Translations under genes and position numbers: made by a program
The notes under the pieces: generated by a model
Told to the model about the DNA's origin: nothing
The model's database searches: none
The model's input: only the letters and a program-made list of their open reading frames with translations
Assembly: GCA_965205015.1 (NCBI GenBank)
Contig: OZ242029.1
Span: 4,800,001-4,864,000, forward strand
Direction of reading: 5' to 3'
DNA length: 64,000 nucleotides
Source of the DNA: Candidatus Poribacteria bacterium
Lineage (GTDB): Bacteria > Poribacteria > WGA-4E > WGA-3G
Shown here: piece by piece, positions 264-28,691 of the stretch
Layout of the letters: each line of letters begins with the position of its first letter
How positions within the stretch are numbered: the stretch's first letter is position 1

Positions 264-1538
264 ATGAGAACAATTTCACTAGACAACGGTTTAGACAACG
301 GTTGGCCCATTGATAGGGTCATCAGAAGGAGACCACGGATAAATCCACAACCCCAATATCAACGAACACCAGTTTGGAACGACACAAAAAAACAATTACT
401 TATTGACTCAATACTTCGGGGATATGACTTACCTAAATTCTATCTGCGCTCATCTACTAACGGATATGAACACGAGGTTGTCGATGGTCAGCAAAGACTT
501 CTCGCAATTTGGGATTTTCGGGACGATCAGTATGCGTTAGGAAATACATCAAAAGATATACCTAATTTTGGAGATTTATCAGGCAGAAAATTCTCAGAAT
601 TACCCAGCGAAGCACAAGATCAATTTGGAGAATTTAAACTTAATTTGGTTGTGATAGAGGAAGCATCAGACTTAGAAATACGGCAGCTTTTCTTAAGATT
701 GCAGGAAGGAGTTAGCCTGAATCCTCCAGAAAAACGGAACGCTATGTCTGGTAATATGCGTGATTTTGTAGCAGACTTGGGGGAAAACCACCGAATTTTT
801 CGCACAGAATTAATTCGTCTTCCTGATACAAGATTTCAGTGGCATGATTTAGTGGCAATAGTAACATGCTTAGAAATAGCTGGAGGACCAACAGATGTTA
901 AAGCTCCTAGTCTGAAAAAGATGTACGAGGATGAGCAGGAGTTTAATAACAATGGAACCATTTCCCAAAAAGTAAAACGATACTTGAATTATATGGCAAG
1001 AGTTTTTGAAGCCCCTGAAACCCCGATTCCCGAAACAGATATTAAGTGGGGCTTCGTAGACTTGTACCTACTGATTTCAAAAATGGATGCCTCCTATGCT
1101 ATCAGTCAGCGAGAACAAGACTTTAAAAATTTTTACATTACTTTTGAAGGCGAGAGACGAGAAAATATGAGTGATTATGGTTCACTACGTGCTGGTCAAG
1201 ATCTTTGGAATAGAGACTTATATAATTATATTGAGGCATTCATTCGTTCAGGGGGTACAAAAAAGAATATCAACACGAGACATAAAGTATATAAAAGACG
1301 ATTTCTTAGAGATTTTCCAGACTTAGTGTCGAAAGACCCTCAACGTAGATTCACTAACGACCAACGGATTTTCATTTGGCGCCGAGCCAATGGTAAGTGT
1401 CAAATATGCGATGCAGAGATTAATTTGAATCAAATGCATGCCGATCATATCATTTGTCATAACGAAGGTGGAAGAACAACCCTTGAAAACGGACGAGCAC
1501 TTTGTATACCATGTAACACTAGTAGAGGTGTTACATAA
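264..1538 (+). CDS. DUF262 (GmrSD/SspE-type ParB-like NTPase) plus C-terminal HNH endonuclease
   Basis: PQYQRTPVW, LIDSIL, VVDGQQRL and FLRLQEG motifs; C-terminal CQIC...HADHII..GG.T..NG..LCIPCN. Confidence 0.85.
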   Translation: MRTISLDNGLDNGWPIDRVIRRRPRINPQPQYQRTPVWNDTKKQLLIDSILRGYDLPKFYLRSSTNGYEHEVVDGQQRLLAIWDFRDDQYALGNTSKDIPNFGDLSGRKFSELPSEAQDQFGEFKLNLVVIEEASDLEIRQLFLRLQEGVSLNPPEKRNAMSGNMRDFVADLGENHRIFRTELIRLPDTRFQWHDLVAIVTCLEIAGGPTDVKAPSLKKMYEDEQEFNNNGTISQKVKRYLNYMARVFEAPETPIPETDIKWGFVDLYLLISKMDASYAISQREQDFKNFYITFEGERRENMSDYGSLRAGQDLWNRDLYNYIEAFIRSGGTKKNINTRHKVYKRRFLRDFPDLVSKDPQRRFTNDQRIFIWRRANGKCQICDAEINLNQMHADHIICHNEGGRTTLENGRALCIPCNTSRGVT

Positions 1539-1609
1539 TCTCATTTTCAATACTCATACTTGAAACTTGATTTATGAATTTACCTAATTGACCGTCTATA
1601 GACTAAAAA

Positions 1610-4027
1610 ATGAAGCAACTTTTCAAAAAATTATACTTTGTCCAAACTGAGGACAACATTGATAAAATCATCAGCAATCATCCGGATATTTTCAAACCTG
1701 AAAATTGGTATCCTCTCGGTGGTCATGAAAATAATTTCGGTGTCATCGAAAATCAACAATCTACCCCGATTGCAGCACTAATTGAGAAAATTACGAACTC
1801 AATTGATGCTGTTTTGATGAAGAAATGCTTGCAAGCAGGCATCAATCCCACATCCAATCAAGCTCCCCAATCCATGGATGAAGCTAGAACGAATTTCTTT
1901 CCAAAACACAGAGACTGGGATCTGGCAGGACTCCGAAATCAGCAAGCCGAGAGCATTCAAGTTCTTGCCGACGGACCACGCGGCAATACCTCCCTGATTA
2001 TTTATGATGATGGCGAGGGACAACATCCTGAAGAATTCGAGAACACCTTCCTTTCATTGTTGCGAGGAAATAAGAACGAAATCCATTTTGTTCAGGGCAA
2101 ATACAATATGGGTGGGAGCGGTGCCATTGTGTTCTGTGGTAAAAAGCGATACCAATTAATCGGTTCAAAGCGTCACGATAACACCGGGGAATTCGGTTTC
2201 ACACTGATTAGAGAACATCCACTGAGCAAAGCAGAAGAAAACACCAAAAAGAATACATGGTACGAATACCTAAAGATTGATGGAAAAATCCCTGCTTTTC
2301 AAGCAGATAGGCAGGATTTAGGACTGCATAAAAGAACTTTCACAACAGGAACAATTATCAAACTCTACTCCTACGATCTTCCCGCCGGAATCTCAGATAT
2401 TTCAAGGGATTTGAATCGGAGCATTAACGAATATCTATTTGAACCTGTCTTGCCCGTGTATACAATTGAAAAAGAGGAACGCTATCCTAAGAGTTCTTTG
2501 CGAAGGGGTTTATACGGACTAAAACGCAGATTGGAGCAGGAAGATAATAAATACGTTGAAGAATCGTTTTCTTTAGATTTTGACGACGAACTTTTTGGAC
2601 AAATGAAAGTGACGTGTTACGTATTCAAAACAAAAATAGACGACAGATCCGTCAAAGAAACTAAGGAAACAATTCAGCGAGAGTTTTTCAAAAACAGAAT
2701 GTCCGTGCTATTTTCAGTCAACGGACAAGCACATGGACACTATACATCCGAATTCATAACTCGCTCCCTAAAATTAAATTTACTTAAGGAACACCTCCTT
2801 ATTCATGTTGATTGTACGAAAATGGCTCCCAATTTCCGCAGAGAATTATTTATGGCATCTCGAGACCGGTTAAAAGATGGTGAAGAAACTCGTGTGTTAC
2901 GGAAATTTTTGGCAGATAAGCTCGGAGCAAAAGATGGACGTTTAGCGGAAATTCAGAAACGGAGGAAAAACTCTATAGCAATAGAAAGTGAGGACGCGAA
3001 AGACTTGATTAGATCTTTCGCACAAAATCTCTCACGAAACCAAGATTTGTTGCAGTTGTTAGGGCAAACTCTAAACTTAGACCTACAAACTAAAGGAAAT
3101 CAGAAAAGAAATTCTAACAGCTCAACCAAGAAAAAACCAAAGCAAAATGACATGCAACCTTTTAATTCGCAAAGATTTCCAGCATTTTTCAAACGACGTG
3201 TGCGCGGAAGCTCCGGAAATGGGGTGGTGGCAATCCCAATTGGTGGTGAGAAAACAATCCTCTTTGACACAGATGTCGAAAACAATTATTTTGATCGCAT
3301 CGAAGAACCAGGGGAATTAAAAATTGCCATTCTTGATTTCAAAACAAATGAAACCGAAGGTGGAGATGCCCCAGGTAAAGTTGATCGGATCGAAGATGTA
3401 TTCAATGCCCGGAAAAGTAGTCCTCAAGACGGAACAATAAAGATTCATCTCAATCCGAAAAAAGAAGTAGATGTCGGAGATGAAGCAAGGATTAAAGTGA
3501 GTCTTAGCGACCCTAGCGGTAACTTTTTTGAGGAAACATTCTGGGTAAAGATAAGCGAACCCCAAGCACCTCCGCAACCTTCGCCTAAAACTGAAAATAA
3601 AGAAATTCCGAATTTAGGTTTGCCTGAGATGAAATTAGTTTATGAAAAAGATTGGGAGCAATTTGGAGAAGCAGGCGAAACAATGGATTATTCTACTGTG
3701 ATGTACCCTTATGTTGAAGGTGAGAAATTAGAAATCATCTACATCAATCTGGATAGTACTGTTTTGAAAAATTTCAGAGCGAAAACCAGAAATGCCAGTC
3801 AGGAACAGTTAGAAATAGCCAATCAAAGATATATCGCCTCTGTATATTCACACACATTGCTTTTGTATTCAATTACAAAGGCACATAAATACGAGATTGT
3901 GCAAGAGGAAAATGGCAGAGATTCTGATGTTGAATTAGGCACTTACCTCAAAGATTTGTTCGACAATTATTACGCAGAATTCCTTCTGAACTTCGGTTTT
4001 GATGATATTATGCAATTGCTGGAATAA
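1610..4027 (+). CDS. GHKL (MORC/HSP90-like) ATPase protein, probably defence-associated
   Basis: Bergerat-fold motifs EKITNSIDA, DDGEG, GKYNMGGSG, TGTIIKL. Confidence 0.7.
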   Translation: MKQLFKKLYFVQTEDNIDKIISNHPDIFKPENWYPLGGHENNFGVIENQQSTPIAALIEKITNSIDAVLMKKCLQAGINPTSNQAPQSMDEARTNFFPKHRDWDLAGLRNQQAESIQVLADGPRGNTSLIIYDDGEGQHPEEFENTFLSLLRGNKNEIHFVQGKYNMGGSGAIVFCGKKRYQLIGSKRHDNTGEFGFTLIREHPLSKAEENTKKNTWYEYLKIDGKIPAFQADRQDLGLHKRTFTTGTIIKLYSYDLPAGISDISRDLNRSINEYLFEPVLPVYTIEKEERYPKSSLRRGLYGLKRRLEQEDNKYVEESFSLDFDDELFGQMKVTCYVFKTKIDDRSVKETKETIQREFFKNRMSVLFSVNGQAHGHYTSEFITRSLKLNLLKEHLLIHVDCTKMAPNFRRELFMASRDRLKDGEETRVLRKFLADKLGAKDGRLAEIQKRRKNSIAIESEDAKDLIRSFAQNLSRNQDLLQLLGQTLNLDLQTKGNQKRNSNSSTKKKPKQNDMQPFNSQRFPAFFKRRVRGSSGNGVVAIPIGGEKTILFDTDVENNYFDRIEEPGELKIAILDFKTNETEGGDAPGKVDRIEDVFNARKSSPQDGTIKIHLNPKKEVDVGDEARIKVSLSDPSGNFFEETFWVKISEPQAPPQPSPKTENKEIPNLGLPEMKLVYEKDWEQFGEAGETMDYSTVMYPYVEGEKLEIIYINLDSTVLKNFRAKTRNASQEQLEIANQRYIASVYSHTLLLYSITKAHKYEIVQEENGRDSDVELGTYLKDLFDNYYAEFLLNFGFDDIMQLLE

Positions 4028-4494: not shown

Positions 4495-4636
4495 CAGGGT
4501 CATTCAATTGTAGGTTTTTTTCGGCGTTTTCGCCAAGACATCGCGAGCCTGGGGAAACACCCAAGCAAAAACACTCGCGCCTACAGGGCTCCTTGGGAAC
4601 CGAAAATCCAAAATTTCGGAAAATTGAATAGCCCTG
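4495..4636. mobile_element. MITE-like element with CAGGG termini
   Basis: CAGGGTCATTCAATT ... AATTGAATAGCCCTG imperfect terminal inverted repeats; no clear target-site duplication. Confidence 0.5.
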
Positions 4637-4662
4637 ATGCGATGTACGATGTACAATTTTAT

Positions 4663-4691
4663 TTGACCTTCAGGCAAATTTGTGTTATAAT
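4663..4691 (+). promoter_or_regulatory. sigma70-type promoter of leader element copy 1
   Basis: TTGACC-N17-TATAAT. Confidence 0.65.
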
Positions 4692-4821
4692 TAACCTTCA
4701 AGATTCGCGTCTAAAAAATGTACCCTTTTCCGTAGAAGTCTGTTATAGTAAAATCCGAAAATATGTTCACACTTGTAGCATAGGCGACCGTTAGTCTCCT
4801 GTGCATCCCTGAATCACGCGT

Positions 4822-4956
4822 ATGAAGACTTATAGAGACCCCCTTCTTCTGAACATATCCACAGCAAACATGCCTTCGTGCTGGGTCCCGGTATCCGACT
4901 GGGGCACCATTAGCCAAGGCGCGATTACCCCCCCCCTCTTAATTCACGTGAAGTAA
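4822..4956 (+). CDS. Putative leader peptide copy 1 (44 aa, C9 tract)
   Basis: MKTYRDPLLL...GAITPPLLIHVK*; C9 at 4928-4936; ends AAGTAA like copies 2 and 3. Confidence 0.45.
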   Translation: MKTYRDPLLLNISTANMPSCWVPVSDWGTISQGAITPPLLIHVK

Positions 4957-5016
4957 TTTTACATATCTATCTCATAAACTGCGTCCGCAGCTTCGCTGCT
5001 GTCGCGGTTTTTTCGC

Positions 5017-5070
5017 GCCCGCACGCGCTGCGTTTCCACACGTCTGCCGCGTTGCGGGCTATTTTTGTTG
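5017..5070 (+). terminator. Terminator-like hairpin of leader copy 1
   Basis: GCCCGCA(CGCG)...(CGCG)TTGCGGGC followed by TATTTTTGTTG. Confidence 0.55.
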
Positions 5071-5144
5071 CATTGGGATTCCACCGGATGCTTTTTGCAA
5101 GTGTTGGGCGGTCCCGATACATCTACCCTTGAGGGTTAACCAAA

Positions 5145-5183
5145 TAGGACTTACGCATTTCCTTTTAATATGCGTAAGTCCTA
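5145..5183. repeat. Minimal AGGACTTACGCA inverted-repeat element
   Basis: TAGGACTTACGCA-N13-TGCGTAAGTCCTA. Confidence 0.75.
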
Positions 5184-5210
5184 CCAAACTTAAAGAAGGA
5201 AAGACTCACA

Positions 5211-7034
5211 ATGTTTAGATTCTGCATCTTATCAATTCTCTGTGTATACGTTACCGCATCAGCCGCGTTTGCGCATCCTGATCCTGGCGATGGTTACCAC
5301 TTCGGGACTACACGTGGCATCAAATTAATAGTGGGCGGGGAGAACAACGAGAGGTTCATCGGACAGAGAGAGCCTGATGCTGAAGGTTACCACATTCATA
5401 GGTACAGCTATACAATTACTGTGGATGGGGGTTCGGTAGGGCTAATATGGGAGAAAACATTTAAAACTGGCGAAGATCCTCCTCCCCCCGATACGCTGCC
5501 AGACGGCTATTTCCCTAGGTTTGGACCTAGAAAGGAAGTTACTGATGACCTAGGTCCGGAGCACATAGTCCACCCACCGGCGCATTCTCATGGCGTTACA
5601 CACGAACATGGCACCTATGTGTCCCACACGCATACAGTGTGGCACACACACGCTGGGGATGCCTCGCAGCACACGCACACTTACACCGAGTCTGAAACTC
5701 ACAGCCTCTCGGATGGCAGCCACACGGGCGTAGGCACCAGGCAACAGAATAACCCACCCCCAGGGTCAAGCGGACGTGAAGAGGAAGAAGGGCGTAGTGG
5801 ACCACCCCCAGGTGATAATCCACCCCAGCAGCAGTTGCATTCTCATGAGGTTACACACCAACATGGCACCTATGTGTCCCACACGCATACAGTGACACAC
5901 ACTGGAGATGCATCGCAGCACACGCACTCTTACACCGAGTCTGAAATTCACAGCCTCTCGGGTGGCAGCCACACGGGCGTAGGCACCAGACAACCGGTGC
6001 AGAACCCACCTCCAGGTAATAACCAAGGTAATAGCCAACCCCAGCAGAGGTCGCATTCTCATGAGGTTACACACCAACATGGCACCTATGTGTCCCACAC
6101 GCATACAGTGACACACACTGGGGATGCCTCGCAGCACACGCACACTTACACCGAGTCTGAAATTCACAGTCTCTCGGGTGACAACCATGTGGGCGTAGGC
6201 ACCAGACAACTGACGAATAACCTACCTCCAGGTGATAACCAAGGTAATAGTCCACCCCCAGCGGGAGGGGAGGGTGGAACTCCTGAAGGGACATCCAATG
6301 GAGCCACGACTACCACAGTAGCGACTCCAGTCGTAGGGGAGGGCGGGGGCACCCCTGAAGGGACATCCAGTCCTCAACAGGTCGTGTCAAGTGGTCCCCA
6401 AGCAACGCAACCCGGGGCTCCACCCGAGCGTCAACCTTTATTACCCATACGCATCACAGAGTATATGGTCAGAGATTGGACGGCTGGGATTGGTGGATTA
6501 CCACAGTGGATTGAGGTGTATAACCCCAACACCGAGGCAGTCAACCTCAAAGGTTACACGTTCCAATATGCCACCCGACGGTCGGCCAATGCCCCCCATA
6601 AAGTCCATACGCTGACACTCGCTGGAACACAGGACGGGTTCAGCATAGCGGGAGGCGGCGTAGCGATCCTATCAACCCGAAAAGTTCCGGCATGGCGATT
6701 TTCCGGTATTGGAGCCTCCCAGGTCTACAACTTGAGCATAGACAACGTCCTCAAACGCGGGTGGGTGTTGACGGATGCCAATGGCAAGGAGATTCACCGT
6801 CTCGGTAGGGCTGCCTTTAGTGCGTTAGGGGATCCGGTGGCACCACTCCATCAGAACAAGGCGCGGGTCTCTTATCAGGTCGTCCCGAGCGAGTCGCCCC
6901 CGGAGGTTTATTACTATGGACATCGGGAAGACATCGGGTCTCCTGGGTTCTACAAGCAACCGGCGCCGGCGGCCCCGAGTGCGGTCAAACGCAAGCGAGT
7001 CGGCACCTGGGCGAGTCTGAAGCAAACGCCATAA
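5211..7034 (+). CDS. Secreted His-rich repeat protein with lamin-tail-like domain and C-terminal TWxxLK motif
   Basis: Signal peptide (AFA|H); three 52-54 aa His repeats; IRITEYM..PQWIEVYNP..VNLKGY (lamin-tail-domain pattern); ends VGTWASLKQTP. Confidence 0.75.
   Translation: MFRFCILSILCVYVTASAAFAHPDPGDGYHFGTTRGIKLIVGGENNERFIGQREPDAEGYHIHRYSYTITVDGGSVGLIWEKTFKTGEDPPPPDTLPDGYFPRFGPRKEVTDDLGPEHIVHPPAHSHGVTHEHGTYVSHTHTVWHTHAGDASQHTHTYTESETHSLSDGSHTGVGTRQQNNPPPGSSGREEEEGRSGPPPGDNPPQQQLHSHEVTHQHGTYVSHTHTVTHTGDASQHTHSYTESEIHSLSGGSHTGVGTRQPVQNPPPGNNQGNSQPQQRSHSHEVTHQHGTYVSHTHTVTHTGDASQHTHTYTESEIHSLSGDNHVGVGTRQLTNNLPPGDNQGNSPPPAGGEGGTPEGTSNGATTTTVATPVVGEGGGTPEGTSSPQQVVSSGPQATQPGAPPERQPLLPIRITEYMVRDWTAGIGGLPQWIEVYNPNTEAVNLKGYTFQYATRRSANAPHKVHTLTLAGTQDGFSIAGGGVAILSTRKVPAWRFSGIGASQVYNLSIDNVLKRGWVLTDANGKEIHRLGRAAFSALGDPVAPLHQNKARVSYQVVPSESPPEVYYYGHREDIGSPGFYKQPAPAAPSAVKRKRVGTWASLKQTP
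5583..6209 (+). repeat. Three intragenic ~156-bp His-rich repeats
   Basis: 5583-5744, 5838-5993 and 6054-6209 are near-identical at DNA level. Confidence 0.9.
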
Positions 7035-7042
7035 AAAAACCT

Positions 7043-7187
7043 CAGGACTTACGCAGTTCCTCCTAAAGTCCCCCTACCCCCTGATAAGGGGGATATGGGG
7101 GGTGAAGGATTTAGGGGATTAAATCACTGAAAGAACGCCTTTTTCGGTGAAATCTATTCCTTTTTTATCCGATGTGCGTAAGTCCTG
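7043..7187. mobile_element. MITE-like element with AGGACTTACGCA termini
   Basis: CAGGACTTACGCA ... TGCGTAAGTCCTG enclosing a CCCCCTGATAAGGGGG palindrome. Confidence 0.7.
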
Positions 7188-7323
7188 TCTATAAAAGCCA
7201 ATCCTCAATCAAGACGGTTCTCTCATCCTGAAAATCCTGATTCAGACAATTTTACCCTCCAAATCCCGAAACTACCCGCTGATTGCTGAAAACTGAATAT
7301 CCTCGAGGGTTATCGCGAAAAAC

Positions 7324-7353
7324 TTGACATCTCACACACGTTTATGCTATAAT
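7324..7353 (+). promoter_or_regulatory. sigma70 promoter of leader copy 2
   Basis: TTGACA-N18-TATAAT with extended -10 TG. Confidence 0.75.
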
Positions 7354-7447
7354 TTAATCACAATGCTCAACTAACGGAAATCGCCTAATTTGCTGCTAAA
7401 AAATTATGCGACAGGTGCTGCAGTTGAAGGGATAATACCAGCAGGAT

Positions 7448-7600
7448 ATGAAGAACCAAGATACGAACGCCACACCCAAAACACGACACCTACTCGATAG
7501 CAATCGCTATCCATGGCGATCCTTAATGTGCTTAGCGTTCATGCGTGCATTAGGATTTAACAAGCCGACTACCCCCCCCCACTTTACAAAAAACAAGTAA
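7448..7600 (+). CDS. Putative leader peptide copy 2 (50 aa, C9 tract)
   Basis: MKNQDTNATPKTRHLLDSNRYPWRSLMCLAFMRALGFNKPTTPPHFTKNK*; same length and frame as copy 3; C9 at 7572-7580. Confidence 0.55.
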   Translation: MKNQDTNATPKTRHLLDSNRYPWRSLMCLAFMRALGFNKPTTPPHFTKNK

Positions 7601-7647
7601 TTTACTTCACAAAACATTCACGGCATCCGCGAATGTTCTGTCCTCAT

Positions 7648-7697
7648 GCCCGCACGCCATCTCGTCTGATGGCACCCAATGCGGGCTATTTTTGTTG
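7648..7697 (+). terminator. Terminator-like hairpin of leader copy 2
   Basis: GCCCGCA-C-GCCATC-loop-GATGGC-ACCCAA-TGCGGGC followed by TATTTTTGTTG. Confidence 0.6.
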
Positions 7698-7740
7698 TCA
7701 TATTTTCCGCACAATTATAGGTCCATAAAGGAGAAAGCGA

Positions 7741-8823
7741 ATGAAAAATAGATTAATTTTTATTGTTTGTCTATTGGTTCTACTCGGTACTCCCGTGTAT
7801 GCGCAATCCGGATTTTACGAATTACCCATCAGCAAAAAGGCGGTCGGTATAGGCTACCAACGCTACAGACCGCCGAAACGGACAGATGCCTCTTTTCGCT
7901 TTCATGCACAAACGATATTAGGGAGTCTCGACTACGCTTTCAGCCGTGATCTAAAGGTCTCACTCCTACCGGGTGTTTCTTTTTTTGATGTCAATACGCA
8001 GAATCCTACTGAGATCGCACCCAGTCCTTCTATTGATATAAGGTTACTCAACATTAACGAGCTGAACATGACGGGATTGAAGTTTTTCATATCAGGCGGG
8101 TTCAGGACCCAATACATGAATATCGTCCGTACTGGGAATTTACCCCTGCATTCTGTGAACATGGCACTCCGAGGCGGTGCGGGATTCCTGCATCTCCTTG
8201 AGACAGATCACGGATGGAAACTCAAGCCATTTTTCGCACTATTCGCAACACAGGTCTGGGACAACGTCTCAAGTGCTAAAAGATTGTACGTCAATACGTC
8301 AAGAAACTTTTTCACCGGTGAAGCAGGTGTAGAAATAGAGTTGTCGCCGACGATGAGTGCCATCGGGAGCATTGAATTCCCTTTTGATTCTTCAGAATTA
8401 CTGTATCGTTTCGGCGTGAACTTCCATCAAGCACCCTCTCTGAATATACCCCGTGAAACGACATCACAAAACGGCAGCGTTGAGACAGACACGCCGGAAG
8501 TTGTTGCTGAATCGGGGCAGATCCATTACGAGCCGAATCTTGAGGTCGCCGGTCCCCAGTACAAATCCAAAGTTGATCCGAAGTATCCAGAACTCGCAAT
8601 CGCTGCGGGGCAGATCGGTGTGGTCATCTTAGAAACAATCATCAATGAAGAGGGTATCCCGATAGACATCGTTAAACGGACAAATCTCGGATACGGACTC
8701 GAAGCAGCGGCACTTGCGGCGTTGAAGCGGACAAGATTCCATCCTGCGATATACCGTGGAGAGCCAATCCCGATGCGGGTCACGATACGCTATATTTTTA
8801 GAATTCAAGATACAATCAGATAG
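7741..8823 (+). CDS. Exported protein: outer-membrane beta-barrel-like region fused to a TonB C-terminal domain
   Basis: Signal peptide; amphipathic strands ending LYRFGVNF; PKYPELA..G..G.V.L...I.E.G and LEAAAL.A.....FHPA (TonB_C pattern). Confidence 0.7.
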   Translation: MKNRLIFIVCLLVLLGTPVYAQSGFYELPISKKAVGIGYQRYRPPKRTDASFRFHAQTILGSLDYAFSRDLKVSLLPGVSFFDVNTQNPTEIAPSPSIDIRLLNINELNMTGLKFFISGGFRTQYMNIVRTGNLPLHSVNMALRGGAGFLHLLETDHGWKLKPFFALFATQVWDNVSSAKRLYVNTSRNFFTGEAGVEIELSPTMSAIGSIEFPFDSSELLYRFGVNFHQAPSLNIPRETTSQNGSVETDTPEVVAESGQIHYEPNLEVAGPQYKSKVDPKYPELAIAAGQIGVVILETIINEEGIPIDIVKRTNLGYGLEAAALAALKRTRFHPAIYRGEPIPMRVTIRYIFRIQDTIR

Positions 8824-8831
8824 GGGGTCGT

Positions 8832-9428
8832 ATGTTACAAAAATTTCTCTACGCGTGCATGTTGATATGTTGTCTACTGGGGTGCACTTCAGACAGCTCA
8901 GATGATAATTCGATATTTCCAACACCCCTCGTGCCCGAACCCGAACCGACACCCCAAACGCCCCCACCGGTCGTTGAGGTGCCTATTATAGTAGAACCCA
9001 TTGAGGAAAAGATTGATGTACCGCCCGTCGACCCAATCGTTGAGGATGAAGTCGAGCCTGAACCTGTTGAAGAAGCCGAGCCTGAGCCTAAAGACAGGAC
9101 AGCACCCCGCCTCATTGATAGCAGCATCTCACATGGTGATGTAGGCATCGATCCAGACACAGAGCGTTTCATTTTTACATTCGATGAGGAGATCGGGCGC
9201 GCCGATATAAAACTCATCAATAACACGCTCAAGATTGATATGGAATGGACAACGCTTTTAGATGGCAAACGCGTCATCCTTTTGAGAGTGCCAGGGGAGG
9301 GGCGTCGGATGATGATGGGCGAACTCTATACAATACAAATGCGATGGCGGGATGAAGCAAATAATTGGGAACCTGAAAATTTCGGAGTTATTCACGTTAT
9401 TACCTTCATCACTGAGGTCAAGGAATGA
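8832..9428 (+). CDS. Lipoprotein with Pro/Glu-rich linker and Ig-like domain
   Basis: Lipobox LLGC; PE-rich stalk; DRTAPRLID..FTFDEEI Ig-like start. Confidence 0.7.
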   Translation: MLQKFLYACMLICCLLGCTSDSSDDNSIFPTPLVPEPEPTPQTPPPVVEVPIIVEPIEEKIDVPPVDPIVEDEVEPEPVEEAEPEPKDRTAPRLIDSSISHGDVGIDPDTERFIFTFDEEIGRADIKLINNTLKIDMEWTTLLDGKRVILLRVPGEGRRMMMGELYTIQMRWRDEANNWEPENFGVIHVITFITEVKE

Positions 9429-9910
9429 TTATGAAATACTTATATCCTTTTTTTTGCTGCATCTGTCTCATGGGGTGTACGACGGATAGCATAGATAACA
9501 GCAATGGGAGCACAATATTTCCAACACCGCCAAGCGTCACAGAACCTCAGACGGCAGATGCTCTTCCAGAACAAACGCCACTCACAAATGTTGTTGAGAA
9601 CGCCGTTGAATGTCCGCCTGAATTTCAGGGCGAGTTTGTCAGTGGTACACTCAATGATGAAGGTTCTGAGCGTAAGAGAATAAATTTCAACGATAAATTC
9701 GTCGTCTATTATTACACTTTGAATTTGGTGCTAAAGGATTCTATCTCTATTAAGATTATCCTTGAAGAAGCTGCACTCGCCCGATCTAAGGAAGGTAAAC
9801 GGCAGATAATCGCTGGAGATTTCTTATTGGTGAAGTTAGACCATCTCTTAGAACCCGGAATATGGAAAGGGGTCTTGGTGAAAAACTTAACCCAAAATAT
9901 CTCCTTTTAA
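9425..9910 (+). CDS. Lipoprotein, N-terminus paralogous to the upstream gene
   Basis: LMGCTTDS..IFPTP versus LLGCTSDS..IFPTP; overlapping ATGA. Confidence 0.7.
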   Translation: MIMKYLYPFFCCICLMGCTTDSIDNSNGSTIFPTPPSVTEPQTADALPEQTPLTNVVENAVECPPEFQGEFVSGTLNDEGSERKRINFNDKFVVYYYTLNLVLKDSISIKIILEEAALARSKEGKRQIIAGDFLLVKLDHLLEPGIWKGVLVKNLTQNISF

Positions 9911-9952
9911 GAATACTAAACTTTGGACAATTTTTAAAAATCCCTCGTGTGA

Positions 9953-10033
9953 CAAGAGGAGAACATCGACGCATGGCATGCGGCAGTCTCCGAATTCAGA
10001 GAGACGGTGCCGGAACTCGGTGAGAAGTTGGCA
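9953..10033 (+). pseudogene. Possible second internal fragment of a type IIG/ISP-like R-M enzyme
   Basis: QEENIDAWHAAVSEFRETVPELGEKLA, recalled as resembling that family; no start codon. Confidence 0.3.
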
Positions 10034-10277
10034 GCACCCAATTTTGATCATTGTCCGCGCTGTGAGATGGGACACCTGTAAAAAACGCAGTCGGTCCAAG
10101 GGCACAACCTAACAGGTTATGCTACAAAAAAGCAGTATGCGAAAGTCCACCGGACAAATAAAATTTGACAGTCAAGGGGTGTCGTGCTATACTGTATAAT
10201 ACGGTCAGCTTCAGAACAGGATAGCGCAGAATTCATAGTCTGATGATACTTGTACGGGCAAATTATAAGGTACCCCC

Positions 10278-10511
10278 TTGAATAAAACAAAGATGACCTA
10301 TTTTGAGAAAGAGGATATACTGCATCTGGCGATTTCTGAGGAGCCAGAAAGTGATAGTTTGGAACTCAGTCCCAATATCACCGCCGAATTGAACAGTGAC
10401 GGTGAACTTATCGGGATTGAAATTCTGAATGCCAGCATCTTCATTCGGGATTCGATTTTAGAATCCGCTCACGCAAAAATGCTATCACTCACCAAAATCC
10501 AGTCCACCTAA
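10278..10511 (+). CDS. DUF2283 family protein (antitoxin-like, no partner seen)
   Basis: Y..EDILHL..SE..E..S.EL.P.I..ELN..GELIGIEILNAS. Confidence 0.8.
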   Translation: MNKTKMTYFEKEDILHLAISEEPESDSLELSPNITAELNSDGELIGIEILNASIFIRDSILESAHAKMLSLTKIQST

Positions 10512-10673
10512 TAGGATATGGCACGCTTGAACAGATATAACGTGAATTCGACTTAAGTCCCTCCGCTGGTGAGGTTGCCTCAATACCCCGTTTCACTCTC
10601 AAAAAATCCGCGTCATCCGCGATAATCCGCGATTCAGACAACTGGAAAATTGAATACCGCTGTGGTTCTATCG

Positions 10674-10806
10674 CAGGGTGATTTCGTTTTCGATTTCACG
10701 TTTAGTTTTAGTTCCCTTCTGTGAAGAAAAAATATATAAAACGTAAGCGTTACACCTGTTACGGCACACGGCGTGTGCCTACTACTTTTAAAACTAAATA
10801 GCCCTG
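10674..10806. mobile_element. ~133-bp MITE with CAGGG termini and ~10-bp target-site duplication (ISAs1-like ends)
   Basis: CAGGGTGATTTCGTTTT ... AAAACTAAATAGCCCTG; flanks GGTTCTATCG / GGTTCTATTG; near-identical copy at 41598-41729. Confidence 0.8.
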
Positions 10807-10824
10807 GGTTCTATTGAGAAAAAT

Positions 10825-10854
10825 TTGACATCTCATACAGGTTTATACTATAAT
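10825..10854 (+). promoter_or_regulatory. sigma70 promoter of leader copy 3
   Basis: TTGACA-N18-TATAAT. Confidence 0.75.
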
Positions 10855-10936
10855 TTAATCATAATGTTCAACTAACGGAAATCAGCTAATTTGCTGCTAA
10901 AAAATTATGCGACAGGTGCTGCATTACAAGCAGGAT

Positions 10937-11089
10937 ATGAAGAACCAGGATATGAACACCACACCCACAACACGATACCCATTCAATAACAATCGCTATC
11001 TACGGCGATGCTTAATGTGCTTAGCGTTCATGCAGGCATTAAGATTTAACAAGCCGATTACCCCCCCCCACTTTACAAAAACTAAGTAA
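10937..11089 (+). CDS. Putative leader peptide copy 3 (50 aa, C9 tract)
   Basis: MKNQDMNTTPTTRYPFNNNRYLRRCLMCLAFMQALRFNKPITPPHFTKTK*; C9 at 11061-11069. Confidence 0.55.
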   Translation: MKNQDMNTTPTTRYPFNNNRYLRRCLMCLAFMQALRFNKPITPPHFTKTK

Positions 11090-11133
11090 TTTTCACAAAA
11101 CACTTACAATATCCGTTAATATTTCCTATTTGC

Positions 11134-11183
11134 GCCCGCGCGCCATCTCGTCTGATGGCACTCAATGCGGGCTATTTTTGTTG
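11134..11183 (+). terminator. Terminator-like hairpin of leader copy 3
   Basis: GCCCGCG-C-GCCATC..GATGGC-ACTCAA-TGCGGGC followed by TATTTTTGTTG. Confidence 0.6.
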
Positions 11184-11212
11184 TCATATTTTCCGCATAA
11201 TTATAGGTCTAT

Positions 11213-11430
11213 AGCTGTATTGATTATTTCCGCAGGCAGAACGTCTCCGATGCCCTCGAACCCCTGCCCCTCATTGACGAAGGACGTATCGCCGCCACAG
11301 AAGCGTGTCCATCGCCCGGACTTGCGCGCGACGCCCTTCGCCAGCAACTTCAAAGTGCGATTGCCAAACTCACCCCGATACGCCGCCGTGTGTTCTGCCT
11401 TTACTACCCCGAAGCGCAGCCGATCAAAGC
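11213..11430 (+). pseudogene. Internal fragment of an ECF sigma factor (end of region 2 to start of region 4)
   Basis: SCIDYFRRQ...LRQQLQSAIAKLTPIRRRVFCLYYPEAQPIKA; upstream in-frame stop at 11204; HTH incomplete. Confidence 0.6.
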
Positions 11431-11458
11431 GGAGAAAAAAAGGATTCTGGAGGTTTTC

Positions 11459-13060
11459 TTGTTTATCACACGTAGGCAATTTATAGAACGGGTCTCTGCC
11501 GCAGGACTCGCCCTCAGCACCAGTTTCGCACTCACAGGATGTGGTTCTTTGGACATCCTATCCCCGCCTTCAATGCCCATAGAGATCGAAGATGACACCC
11601 CGGCACTGATTATCGGTTCTGGGTTTGGCGGTGCGGTTACGGCTTTGCGACTCGGCGAGGCTGGCATCCGAACGATGGTCTTGGAGCAAGGCAGGCGTTG
11701 GGATTCCGCAGCGGCTCCGTTTTCTCGTTTATTACCGCCCGATGGGCGTTCAACGTGGTTACGAAACAGAACCGTTCTGCCGTTCGGTCCATCAATGCCG
11801 ATCCAGAAATATACGGGTGTCTTAGACCGTGTGGATTATCCGAACATAAAGGTGTACCGAGGCACAGCGGTCGGTGGTGGCTCCATCGTATACGGCGGCA
11901 TCAGCACACAACCGCCCGAAGACCTATTTTATGAGGTTTTTCCGAGTGGCATCTCCTATGCGGAACTGCTTCCCTATTACGAACGCGTCCGCACGATGCT
12001 CCGTATCACGACTGTGCCTGCAGACATTGAAGAACAGCCATACTACGACTACACGCGTGTCTTTGTCGATCACGCAGCGACTGCCGGATTAGAGACAGTC
12101 TCTATAGGACAGGCACACGATTGGGACACCATCCGTTCCGAGATCGCAGGGACGCTGCCGCCTTCTGCTATTATCGGAGAAGCGGTGTATGGCAACAATA
12201 GCGGCTGTAAAAACAGTCTCGATCAAAACTATCTGCCGATGGCAGAATCCACAGGTTATGTCACCATCCATCCGTTGCACCGCGTCATTGAGATCACTCA
12301 GGAAAAACGTGGTAAATACGCCGTGACAACTGAACAGATAGATGAACGGGGTGAGGTGATACAGACGAAAAAAATCACTACGGACTTTCTATTCCTCGCA
12401 GCAGGTTCTATTGGGACGACGGAGTTATTGGTAAAGGCGCGTGAATTGGGGAGCTTGCCACATCTCGACGCGGCAGTTGGGCACGGATGGGGAACGAATG
12501 GCAATGTTTTGTTTACACGCACTGTGGACGCGTTAACTGGAAAGATGCAAGGCGGTCCCGCCATCAAAGCGATTTTAGATTATGAGAATCGGGAAACCCC
12601 TGCGATTATCAAAGCAGCATACTTTCCTATCGGACTCGAATGCAACTGTCTCCTGTATTTGATGCTTGCTTTAGAGACCGAGCGCGGACATTTTTCATAC
12701 AACGCATCGACCGACACTGTGGAATTGATGTGGCCAGCAGGAGGCAACGATCAAGCGGTGCGGGCGGTGGTAGACTTCGCCGAGCGTCTGAACGCTGCCA
12801 ATGGGGGACATCTCAGTTCACCTGCGGGGTTACCTTTTAGTCCGCCTGACATTCTCAAAGAGTTTACATATCACCCCTTAGGCGGAATGGTCCTGGGTGA
12901 GGCGTGTGATGTGTATGGGCGCGTCCATGGTTACACAAGGTTGTATGTCATGGATGGTTCATTGTTGCCGGGGTCTTGTGCAACTGCGAATCCGTCCCTA
13001 ACGATTGCGGCTTTAGCAGAACGGAATATTGAAAATATTCTTGCAGCGGATTTCGATTGA
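11459..13060 (+). CDS. Tat-exported lipoprotein, cholesterol oxidase-like GMC oxidoreductase
   Basis: GGAGG plus TTG start; TRRQFI twin-arginine motif, LTGC lipobox; GSGFGG, GGGSIVYGG, GWGTNG, YHPLGG, DGSL.PG..ANPSLTIAALAERN. Confidence 0.85.
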   Translation: MFITRRQFIERVSAAGLALSTSFALTGCGSLDILSPPSMPIEIEDDTPALIIGSGFGGAVTALRLGEAGIRTMVLEQGRRWDSAAAPFSRLLPPDGRSTWLRNRTVLPFGPSMPIQKYTGVLDRVDYPNIKVYRGTAVGGGSIVYGGISTQPPEDLFYEVFPSGISYAELLPYYERVRTMLRITTVPADIEEQPYYDYTRVFVDHAATAGLETVSIGQAHDWDTIRSEIAGTLPPSAIIGEAVYGNNSGCKNSLDQNYLPMAESTGYVTIHPLHRVIEITQEKRGKYAVTTEQIDERGEVIQTKKITTDFLFLAAGSIGTTELLVKARELGSLPHLDAAVGHGWGTNGNVLFTRTVDALTGKMQGGPAIKAILDYENRETPAIIKAAYFPIGLECNCLLYLMLALETERGHFSYNASTDTVELMWPAGGNDQAVRAVVDFAERLNAANGGHLSSPAGLPFSPPDILKEFTYHPLGGMVLGEACDVYGRVHGYTRLYVMDGSLLPGSCATANPSLTIAALAERNIENILAADFD

Positions 13061-28598: not shown

Positions 28599-28691
28599 TA
28601 GGACTTACGCAATTTCTATGGAAGACCTACGGTCCACACGCCGCTGGCGAGGTTTCAAACCTCGACAGCAAAGGCGGCTGCGTAAGTGCTG
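28599..28691. mobile_element. AGGACTTACGCA-ended MITE-like element
   Basis: TAGGACTTACGCA ... TGCGTAAGTGCT with an internal GGCGAGGTTTCAAACCTCG hairpin; similar hairpin near 38170. Confidence 0.65.

Follow-up and report, generated by a model that had tools for sequence, protein, structure and literature searches.

Poly-C leader cassettes of Poribacteria as candidate phase-variable attenuators

The stretch of DNA analyzed here, 64,000 nucleotides of a Candidatus Poribacteria genome (contig OZ242029.1, positions 4,800,001 to 4,864,000 of the forward strand; hereafter the window), carries three cassettes, at 4663-5070, 7324-7697 and 10825-11183, in which a promoter, a short leader open reading frame (ORF), a run of nine cytosines (C9), a conserved motif and an intrinsic terminator follow one another in the same order. 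The reading that we favor, and that we hold to be probable if well short of certain, is that these cassettes are phase-variable leader-peptide attenuators, that is, self-contained on/off controllers of the genes that follow them; it is built on sequence comparison, in which the anatomy of the cassette, its conservation and the between-genome variation of its tract are observed directly. The cassette is widespread in sponge-associated Poribacteria, where it is probably a slippage-driven on/off switch. The underlying mechanism is already known from the pil1 locus of Streptococcus gallolyticus; the homopolymer form in Poribacteria is new within the open-access literature searched.

The first-pass annotation of this DNA had reported the three-locus layout at the coordinates where we also find it and had described the promoters as near-consensus, which agrees with the 11, 12 and 12 matches out of 12 positions that we count. 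The parts of the three cassettes are the following.

4663..4691, + strand: copy 1 promoter, TTGACC, 17 nt spacer, TATAAT; 11 of 12 consensus positions, TG before the -10
4822..4956, + strand: copy 1 leader ORF, 44 aa; body unrelated to copies 2 and 3, sole long open frame into the tract
4928..4936, + strand: copy 1 C9 tract; exact run count
4937..4960, + strand: copy 1 post-tract motif, a CTTAAT...GAAGTAATTTT variant; two frames meet stops, +6 and +20 past the tract
4976..5013, + strand: copy 1 first hairpin with T6, an extra terminator-like site; dG -19.0 kcal/mol, z -4.9
5017..5070, + strand: copy 1 terminator, GCCCGC...GCGGGC with T-rich tail; dG -23.7 kcal/mol, includes the tail 17-mer
7324..7353, + strand: copy 2 promoter; 12 of 12 consensus positions
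7448..7600, + strand: copy 2 leader ORF, 50 aa, running into the tract
7572..7580, + strand: copy 2 C9 tract; also C9 in contigs of sequencing runs X1, X3 and X4
7581..7612, + strand: copy 2 post-tract motif, ACTTTACA..AAGTAATTTACTTCACAA; best-conserved part of the family, on which BLAST matches center (query 253-293)
7609..7641, + strand: copy 2 upstream hairpin; counterpart in about half of the family
7648..7697, + strand: copy 2 terminator hairpin with T-rich tail; dG -21.1 kcal/mol, compensatory stem changes in orthologue L056
10825..10854, + strand: copy 3 promoter; 12 of 12 consensus positions
10907..11089, + strand: copy 3 leader ORF, 60 aa (50 aa if started at the ATG of 10937)
11061..11069, + strand: copy 3 C9 tract; also C9 in contigs of X1, X3 and X4
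11070..11098, + strand: copy 3 post-tract motif; stops at +16 and +20
11134..11183, + strand: copy 3 terminator hairpin with T-rich tail; dG -21.2 kcal/mol, includes the tail 17-mer
11130..11486, + strand: frame entered by copy 3 upon a -1 change; open for 417 nt, crossing an ECF sigma remnant

Within the 64-kb window, C9 occurs exactly three times (4928, 7572 and 11061) and on the + strand only, whereas shuffled windows hold 0.39 such runs on average and reach three in 1 of 100 cases; the 17-mer GCGGGCTATTTTTGTTG, which closes the hairpin and starts the T-tail, recurs with 0 mismatches at 5054, 7681 and 11167 against an expectation of 0.11, and 0 of 100 shuffles give three. All three leader ORFs read the tract as ACC CCC CCC C and end in AAG TAA. 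This common codon phase and ending, the identical sequence after the hairpin and the relationship among the copies had all been pointed out in the first-pass annotation, and they stand: copies 2 and 3 align over their full length as a duplication of about 440 nt, and copy 1, whose leader body is unrelated, resembles them nowhere but in the promoter, in the tract with the ~25 nt behind it and in the terminator. The motif of copy 1 also forms a near-palindrome at 4939-4956. One earlier statement requires amendment: the count of exactly nine Cs holds in 3 of 3 window copies but not for the family, whose members range from C7 to C18. Elsewhere in the 64-kb window no further module was found, Rfam returned 0 matches at gathering score over the whole window, and at E up to 10 over 4500-11400 it returned 8 weak matches, of which none lies on a cassette.

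We propose that a transcript started at the strong sigma-70 promoter would first present the short leader ORF, for which translation itself would count and the peptide would not. The poly-C tract in the leader would change its length by slipped-strand mispairing at replication, and the motif behind it would supply a stop always in one frame and usually in a second, leaving the third frame open through the intrinsic terminator ~70-113 nt further on. At a closed-frame length, the ribosome would leave about 55 nt ahead of the hairpin, which would then form and end most transcripts (OFF or low); at an open-frame length, a ribosome following the polymerase would cover the 5' arm of the hairpin and transcription would enter the gene (ON). 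In many copies the open frame is such that translation would end on the downstream start codon, which could add translational coupling. It is the slippage rate, the termination at the hairpin, the translation of the leader and its effect on read-through that we infer.

At C9 the window copies would yield the short peptide, so that their predicted state is OFF or low, and their leader stops lie 44-60 nt ahead of the hairpin, close to the 45-60 nt given in the first-pass annotation. The changes expected to turn them ON coincide with the slips that had been traced earlier, namely +1 in copy 1 (running to the stop at 5130-5132), either +1 or -1 in copy 2 (to 7726-7728 and 7749-7751, respectively) and -1 in copy 3 (to 11484-11486); the last of these frames ends ~24 nt past the likely TTG start (11462, with GGAGG) of an oxidoreductase gene.

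The order of parts matches that of the pil1 switch, which is why we read the cassette as its homopolymer version. According to Danne et al. 2014 (PMC3894217), the pil1 leader peptide, with its GCAGA repeats, ends 39 bp ahead of the terminator; out-of-frame repeat numbers put the stop within or beyond the hairpin, where the ribosome blocks hairpin formation and transcription rises. Both systems comprise a promoter, a short leader ORF, a repeat unit that is not a multiple of 3, a terminator and a regulated operon; in both, the short peptide stops before the hairpin (39 bp there against a median of 55 nt here) and the other frames stop inside or beyond it, and the genes that pil1 regulates specify surface structures. 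The Poribacteria cassettes differ in having a C7-C18 homopolymer instead of 22 GCAGA copies, a conserved stop-supplying motif after the tract, and some ten or more loci per genome, which precede many unrelated genes where pil1 has one or two pilus operons; tract and motif are moreover found within ORFs as well, and the phylum is another one. pil1 is an analogue and not a family member, there being no sequence relationship, and the Poribacteria cassettes are known from sequence alone. The earlier statement that no description of such an element was known must nevertheless be given up, inasmuch as the pil1 paper (PMC3894217) already shows the mechanism with GCAGA repeats.

Comparison with other Poribacteria genomes favors the reusable tract-length switch that the first-pass annotation had suggested, in that tract length varies, the leader stays open while its peptide drifts, closed and open frames recur behind the tract and orientation is strict. 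The first relative to be found, a cassette ahead of an ECF sigma gene on a Candidatus Poribacteria chromosome, came from a pattern scan of species-representative genomes. With copy 2 as the query, BLAST gave matches in 42 of 175 Poribacteria genomes, always centered on the tract and the 30 nt behind it; the family pattern of tract plus motif (C7, 0-12 nt, CTTYAC, 7 nt, AAGTA) is present in 48 of the 175, and the reversed-pattern control in 0. Among the matches listed, 68 non-redundant copies (65 from relatives and the 3 of the window) make up the set used below and fall into 37 BLAST clusters, with 89 further pattern matches lying outside it. Pattern matches in JGI metagenomes amounted to 4 stretches, 3 of them one AT-rich sequence, with no cassette features; they were taken as chance and excluded from the counts.

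In 44 of 63 copies, as against 1 of 63 control windows, the stretch 100-420 nt upstream contains a promoter with 10 or more of 12 consensus positions, and a median of 211 nt separates the end of its -10 element from the tract. Copies in which an ATG-initiated ORF of 30 codons or more enters the tract number 60 of 67, where dinucleotide shuffles predict 9.6, and the remaining two frames are mostly shut within a few codons. The peptides thus encoded show no relation between BLAST clusters, and within clusters the ratio of nonsynonymous to synonymous substitution rates (dN/dS) ranges from 0.31 to 2.71 with a median of 0.82 (9 pairs, another 10 of the 19 leader pairs being excluded because their ungapped identity was too low); the leader frame is thus held open, but the peptide is unconserved. 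On the reverse strand no consistent ORF was seen across the G tract. Two other functions were considered and set aside: the tract does not fit as a promoter spacer, the spacings being unsuitable on either strand (judged by eye, with no formal scan), and a small-RNA reading was dropped after the open-frame statistic (60/67), the single-sequence folds of the three window cassettes having z of -2.3, -0.8 and -3.4 and a minimum free energy structure that leaves the tract unpaired.

These data also bear on the view that the cassettes are selfish or neutral repeats akin to miniature inverted-repeat transposable elements (MITEs), or else stand-alone genes for small RNAs or small proteins, with no control over their neighbors. 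Such a view could draw on the many copies per genome (in one genome, G069, at least seven with nearly identical motifs), on the ~440-nt duplication that gave copies 2 and 3, on the position of copy 3 at a site where an ECF sigma gene lacks its 5' part and on the fact that each cassette has its own promoter and terminator. It is nonetheless the account to which we assign the smallest chance. Of 67 copies, 64 have their longest downstream ORF on the strand of the cassette, with just a weak bias upstream (40 to 24), and the distance from the T-run to the next start is often just 30-90 nt, thereby leaving little space for a second promoter. No terminal inverted repeats spanning any of the three window cassettes were found, nor does an Rfam family correspond to them; orthologous genes as far apart as 60% identity keep the cassette, as exemplified by the orthologue of the copy 2 gene in L056, which has one of its own. 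Peptides that are unrelated between clusters and dN/dS near 1 mean, moreover, that the leaders are not a protein family. The MITE alternative offered in the first-pass annotation is weakened by the lack of spanning inverted repeats and by the 64/67 co-orientation, target-site duplications not having been searched systematically.

As a side observation on copy number, the at least seven modules of G069 include L050, L077 and L078, whose flanks are 95-100% identical, and the set looks like a recently amplified gene-plus-cassette family.

The motif behind the tract has the consensus CTTYACA, 5-6 nt, TAAGTA, and it holds a repeated CTTYACA box together with small palindromes (AAGTA..TACTT). In 58 of 58 copies examined the nearest stop falls at +4 to +20 after the tract, a second frame usually meets its stop by +35 and the third is open; under a cruder terminator rule, a frame stays open through the T-run in 57 of those 58, compared with 33.1 expected from shuffles. 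When terminators are defined by folding, a T-run being required behind a hairpin that reaches at least -10 kcal/mol in strength, 51 of the 68 copies have one (median -19.9 kcal/mol), with the 5' arm starting at a median of +70 after the tract and the T-run at +113; the longest frame clears the T-run in 49 of these 51 copies, including all three of the window, and the nearest leader stop lies a median of 55 nt ahead of the terminator stem. The basal stem shows compensatory changes at 4 of 6 pairs in a 26-sequence alignment, the orthologue L056 having GCTCGG/CCGAGC in place of GCCCGC/GCGGGC. An extra upstream hairpin is present, with z below -1.5, in 19 of 38 copies. No antiterminator was apparent, in the sense of a segment complementary to the terminator 5' arm, the upstream hairpin included, in the copies inspected by eye, a search that was not exhaustive.

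The length of the tract is the variable element. Among the 68 copies it measures 7 in 3 cases, 8 in 10, 9 in 19, 10 in 16, 11 in 8, 12 in 4, 13 in 3, 14 in 2, 15 in 1 and 16 in 2, and a C18 tract occurs in G151, outside the 68-copy set. Lengths differ from species to species and also among paralogues, and they do so within 8 of the 10 clusters that have two or more members; one pair is formed by L061 (C9, long frame) and L084 (C10, short frame), whose flanks are 99-100% identical; ungapped pairs with near-identical flanks number four, of which one differs in tract length, too few for a rate. As they now stand, 53 of 68 leaders are in a short frame and 15 of 68 in a long one, so that every state is represented; this is near the expectation for random length with two of three frames closed.

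The same tract and motif are also found inside genes. Type III mod genes carry them within the ORF in L041 (C9, in frame) and L053 (C11, shifted), and a type IIG gene, L042, is split at C7. For mod, 22 orthologues were recovered with both flanks: 15 are tract-free, with CCNCCN (Pro-Pro) at the site and all in frame, and the other 7 have C7 to about C14, of which 3 are in frame and 4 shifted. Such a distribution is what a phase-variable mod gene classically shows. In the three window copies, unlike in these mod and type IIG genes, the tract sits in a separate leader and not in the regulated ORF. A survey of five complete genomes, restricted to tracts whose 42nd following base is not G, listed 46 tracts of C9 or longer, and 36 of these have [T/A]AAGT within the next ~25 nt, so that long C tracts in these genomes are almost always this module. 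Because of the mod and type IIG cases and of this survey, a broader reading deserves mention, namely that the tract and a motif of ~20-30 nt are a portable phase-variation module copied between leaders and ORFs, with 10 or more contingency switches per genome over defense and host-interaction genes and with a motif that itself has a role, perhaps in being recognized by a protein or a methylase that governs slippage, pausing or RNA decay. As a complete account we consider this unlikely, though deserving of some weight.

Several observations weigh against the attenuator that we propose. A clear Shine-Dalgarno sequence is lacking in most leader ORFs, and some have no visible initiation signal at all; in the sspB cassettes (L019, L025, L029 and L036) the leader ATG lies ~8 nt after the -10 hexamer, a spacing that suggests translation of the SspB-group leaders from leaderless mRNA and may explain the missing Shine-Dalgarno sequence. 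Under the folding rule, 17 of 68 copies are without a strong terminator. The excess of open frames is less significant than it appears because the shuffle baseline is high (33.1/58) and the copies are related. The motif has a specificity that the provision of two stops does not call for, and hence part of its function probably lies beyond the supply of stops. With respect to the tract itself, copies 2 and 3 are C9 in Logan contigs of 3 runs from 2 studies, minority lengths being hidden in contigs, and one of these C9 runs represents a strain with 15 differences in 268 nt; all three window tracts are C9, as are 12 of 13 listed in G069, including all 10 that bear the motif. Such uniformity could stem from recent duplication, from selection for the OFF length or from a lower mutability than assumed, and homopolymer lengths in metagenome-assembled genomes carry some error.

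The constancy of C9 in three runs, the diverged strain included, and the uniform length within the window and G069 would be expected if the effect were not heritable at all. A fixed or condition-dependent share of the ribosomes would then reach the open frame because the RNA polymerase slips, or the ribosome shifts by +1 or -1, at the C run; read-through would be graded, and tract length would do no more than tune the rate of slippage. The anatomy that this would require, two closed frames and one open past the terminator, is identical, and runs of CCC codons are +1 shift-prone sites in the literature on EF-P and m1G37. Conversely, a range from C7 to C18, with 15 of 68 leaders already in the open frame, ill fits a fixed recoding site; the tract interrupts type III mod in some species only, as heritable switches classically do; and efficient transcriptional slippage is documented mainly for A/T runs. 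We therefore regard the non-heritable alternative as improbable.

Our confidence is lower still in a proline-sensing or EF-P-sensing attenuator, in which a stall at Pro-Pro(-Pro) would control termination as in the Salmonella mgt leaders. Any frame of a C7 or longer tract does give at least two prolines, 4-8 codons before the stop, and the G-poor spacer behind the tract (13.7% G) would suit Rho loading after uncoupling; Rho attenuation of mgtCBR that depends on a uORF is mentioned in PMC12360218. The tract, however, is a pure C run throughout, with mixed CCN codons never seen, which points to selection on the nucleotide run and not on the peptide; changes in its length move the frame freely, a ribosome that stalled there would remain ~40-55 nt short of the terminator stem, no antiterminator pairing is visible by eye in the copies inspected and only about half of the copies have the upstream hairpin. 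The stalling alternative raised in the first-pass annotation finds little support for the same reasons. Separately, Rho loading at the spacer, which is G-poor yet AT-rich and not C-rich, was put aside as a mechanism and kept as a minor possibility.

To return to the switch that we favor, the genes behind the window cassettes are the following.

5211..7034, + strand: gene behind copy 1, coding for an exported His-rich repeat protein that has a Lamin Tail Domain (Pfam LTD, E 1.3e-9)
7741..9910, + strand: operon behind copy 2, coding for a barrel/TonB_C protein, with two lipoprotein-like ORFs besides (Pfam TonB_C, E 3.4e-13)
11390..13060, + strand: gene behind copy 3, Tat-signal GMC oxidoreductase (Pfam GMC_oxred families); the ORF starts inside the ECF remnant

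Across the family, the long-frame stop lies within 15 nt of a start supported by a Shine-Dalgarno sequence in 16 of 29 copies, and in the SspB group stop and start overlap as TTGA or TTGCGTAA. The Pfam scan of relatives covered 47 downstream ORFs, the 3 window genes being scanned separately; 18 ORFs stood outside it (11 of the SspB locus, 3 inside the tract-bearing genes of L041 and L053, the rest short or close duplicates). At E up to 0.001, 26 of the 47 were matched, the best matches being to LRR (5), DUF4007 (4), fn3 (2), LTD (2) and ECF sigma (2), with single matches to cadherin, WD40, TPR, TonB_C, ConA-like hydrolase, SNF2/PLD, MmeI-like and sigma-54 activator, besides two methyltransferases and a weak autotransporter match. 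PADLOC identifies DUF4007 as SspB and recognizes among the others HKD+Snf2, type IIG restriction-modification and an HmaB-like methylase. The genes thus belong to defense systems and to eukaryotic-like surface proteins, which are the two classes most often phase-variable elsewhere.

Several known systems share part of this design. Contingency loci and phasevarions of Haemophilus, Neisseria, Helicobacter and Campylobacter have G/C tracts of ~8-13 and act on restriction-modification and surface targets. The resemblance lies in a frame-dependent ON/OFF choice, into which the mod genes of the relatives fit directly; a C. jejuni poly-G tract is treated in a preprint (10.1101/2022.11.09.515450). The window cassettes depart from such contingency genes by having the tract in a separate leader ORF and a proposed effect via the terminator. 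In H. pylori the G-repeat of the tlpB 5' untranslated region is targeted by the small RNA RepG through pairing with the untranslated repeat; here too a variable homopolymer in an mRNA leader would set the gene that follows, but the tract is inside a putatively translated ORF and no partner RNA was found. The trpL and Salmonella mgtL/mgtP leaders sense charged tRNA, proline or EF-P via alternative hairpins, and with them the cassettes would share the principle that termination depends on where the ribosome stands on a leader ORF; they are unlike them in that inspection by eye revealed no antiterminator and that what varies is the length of a DNA tract. In the open-access literature searched we found no paper on phase variation in Poribacteria or sponge symbionts and no description of a homopolymer leader-peptide attenuator.

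To our knowledge, nearly all described cases of phase variation come from pathogens and commensals that have been cultivated. Should the proposed switch hold true, it would bring phase variation to uncultivated sponge symbionts by way of a standard cassette, whose targets would be putative host-contact proteins (LRR, fn3, cadherin, WD40, TPR, LTD) and phage defense (Ssp, type IIG, type III restriction-modification), and what was the mechanism of a single streptococcal pilus operon would become a general modular design. The cassette, comprising promoter, leader, tract, two-frame stop and terminator, is also a compact natural part suited to reporters.

A number of further features were noted in the surroundings of the cassettes. 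Directly behind copy 3, at 11237-11461, lies an ECF sigma remnant that is region 4-like and runs in frame into the GMC oxidoreductase ORF; in L001 and L070 the cassette stands ahead of an intact ECF sigma gene, and copy 3 may have taken the place of what was the 5' portion of a gene of this kind. Immediately upstream of copy 1, at 264-4027, are a GmrSD_N/HNH nuclease (NsnA-like according to PADLOC) and an 805-aa HATPase_c_3 protein, from which it appears that the cassettes border a defense island. The copy 1 gene contains at 5590-6250 three near-identical coding repeats of ~240 nt, His/Thr-rich, between which the run contigs skip, and the number of these repeats may vary between strains.

Two short repeats recur in the same region. 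The word AGGACTTACGCA (11-12 nt) and its complement are found at 5146-5183, at 7044-7055 with 7174-7185, and at 28601: the first site, which lies between copy 1 and the gene that follows it, is a hairpin of 13 perfectly paired bp, and the second (7044-7185) forms inverted ends around ~110 nt just behind that gene. The word also occurs near the cassette in the relative L001 (near 5250 and 5830), and it may be a separate small repeat element. Upstream of copies 2 and 3, at 7225-7250 and 10604-10645, a short repeat ending ..GATTCAGACAA shows very high depth, with many contigs breaking, joining or diverging exactly there in all four runs; it has the look of an interspersed repeat that is present in many copies in the community.

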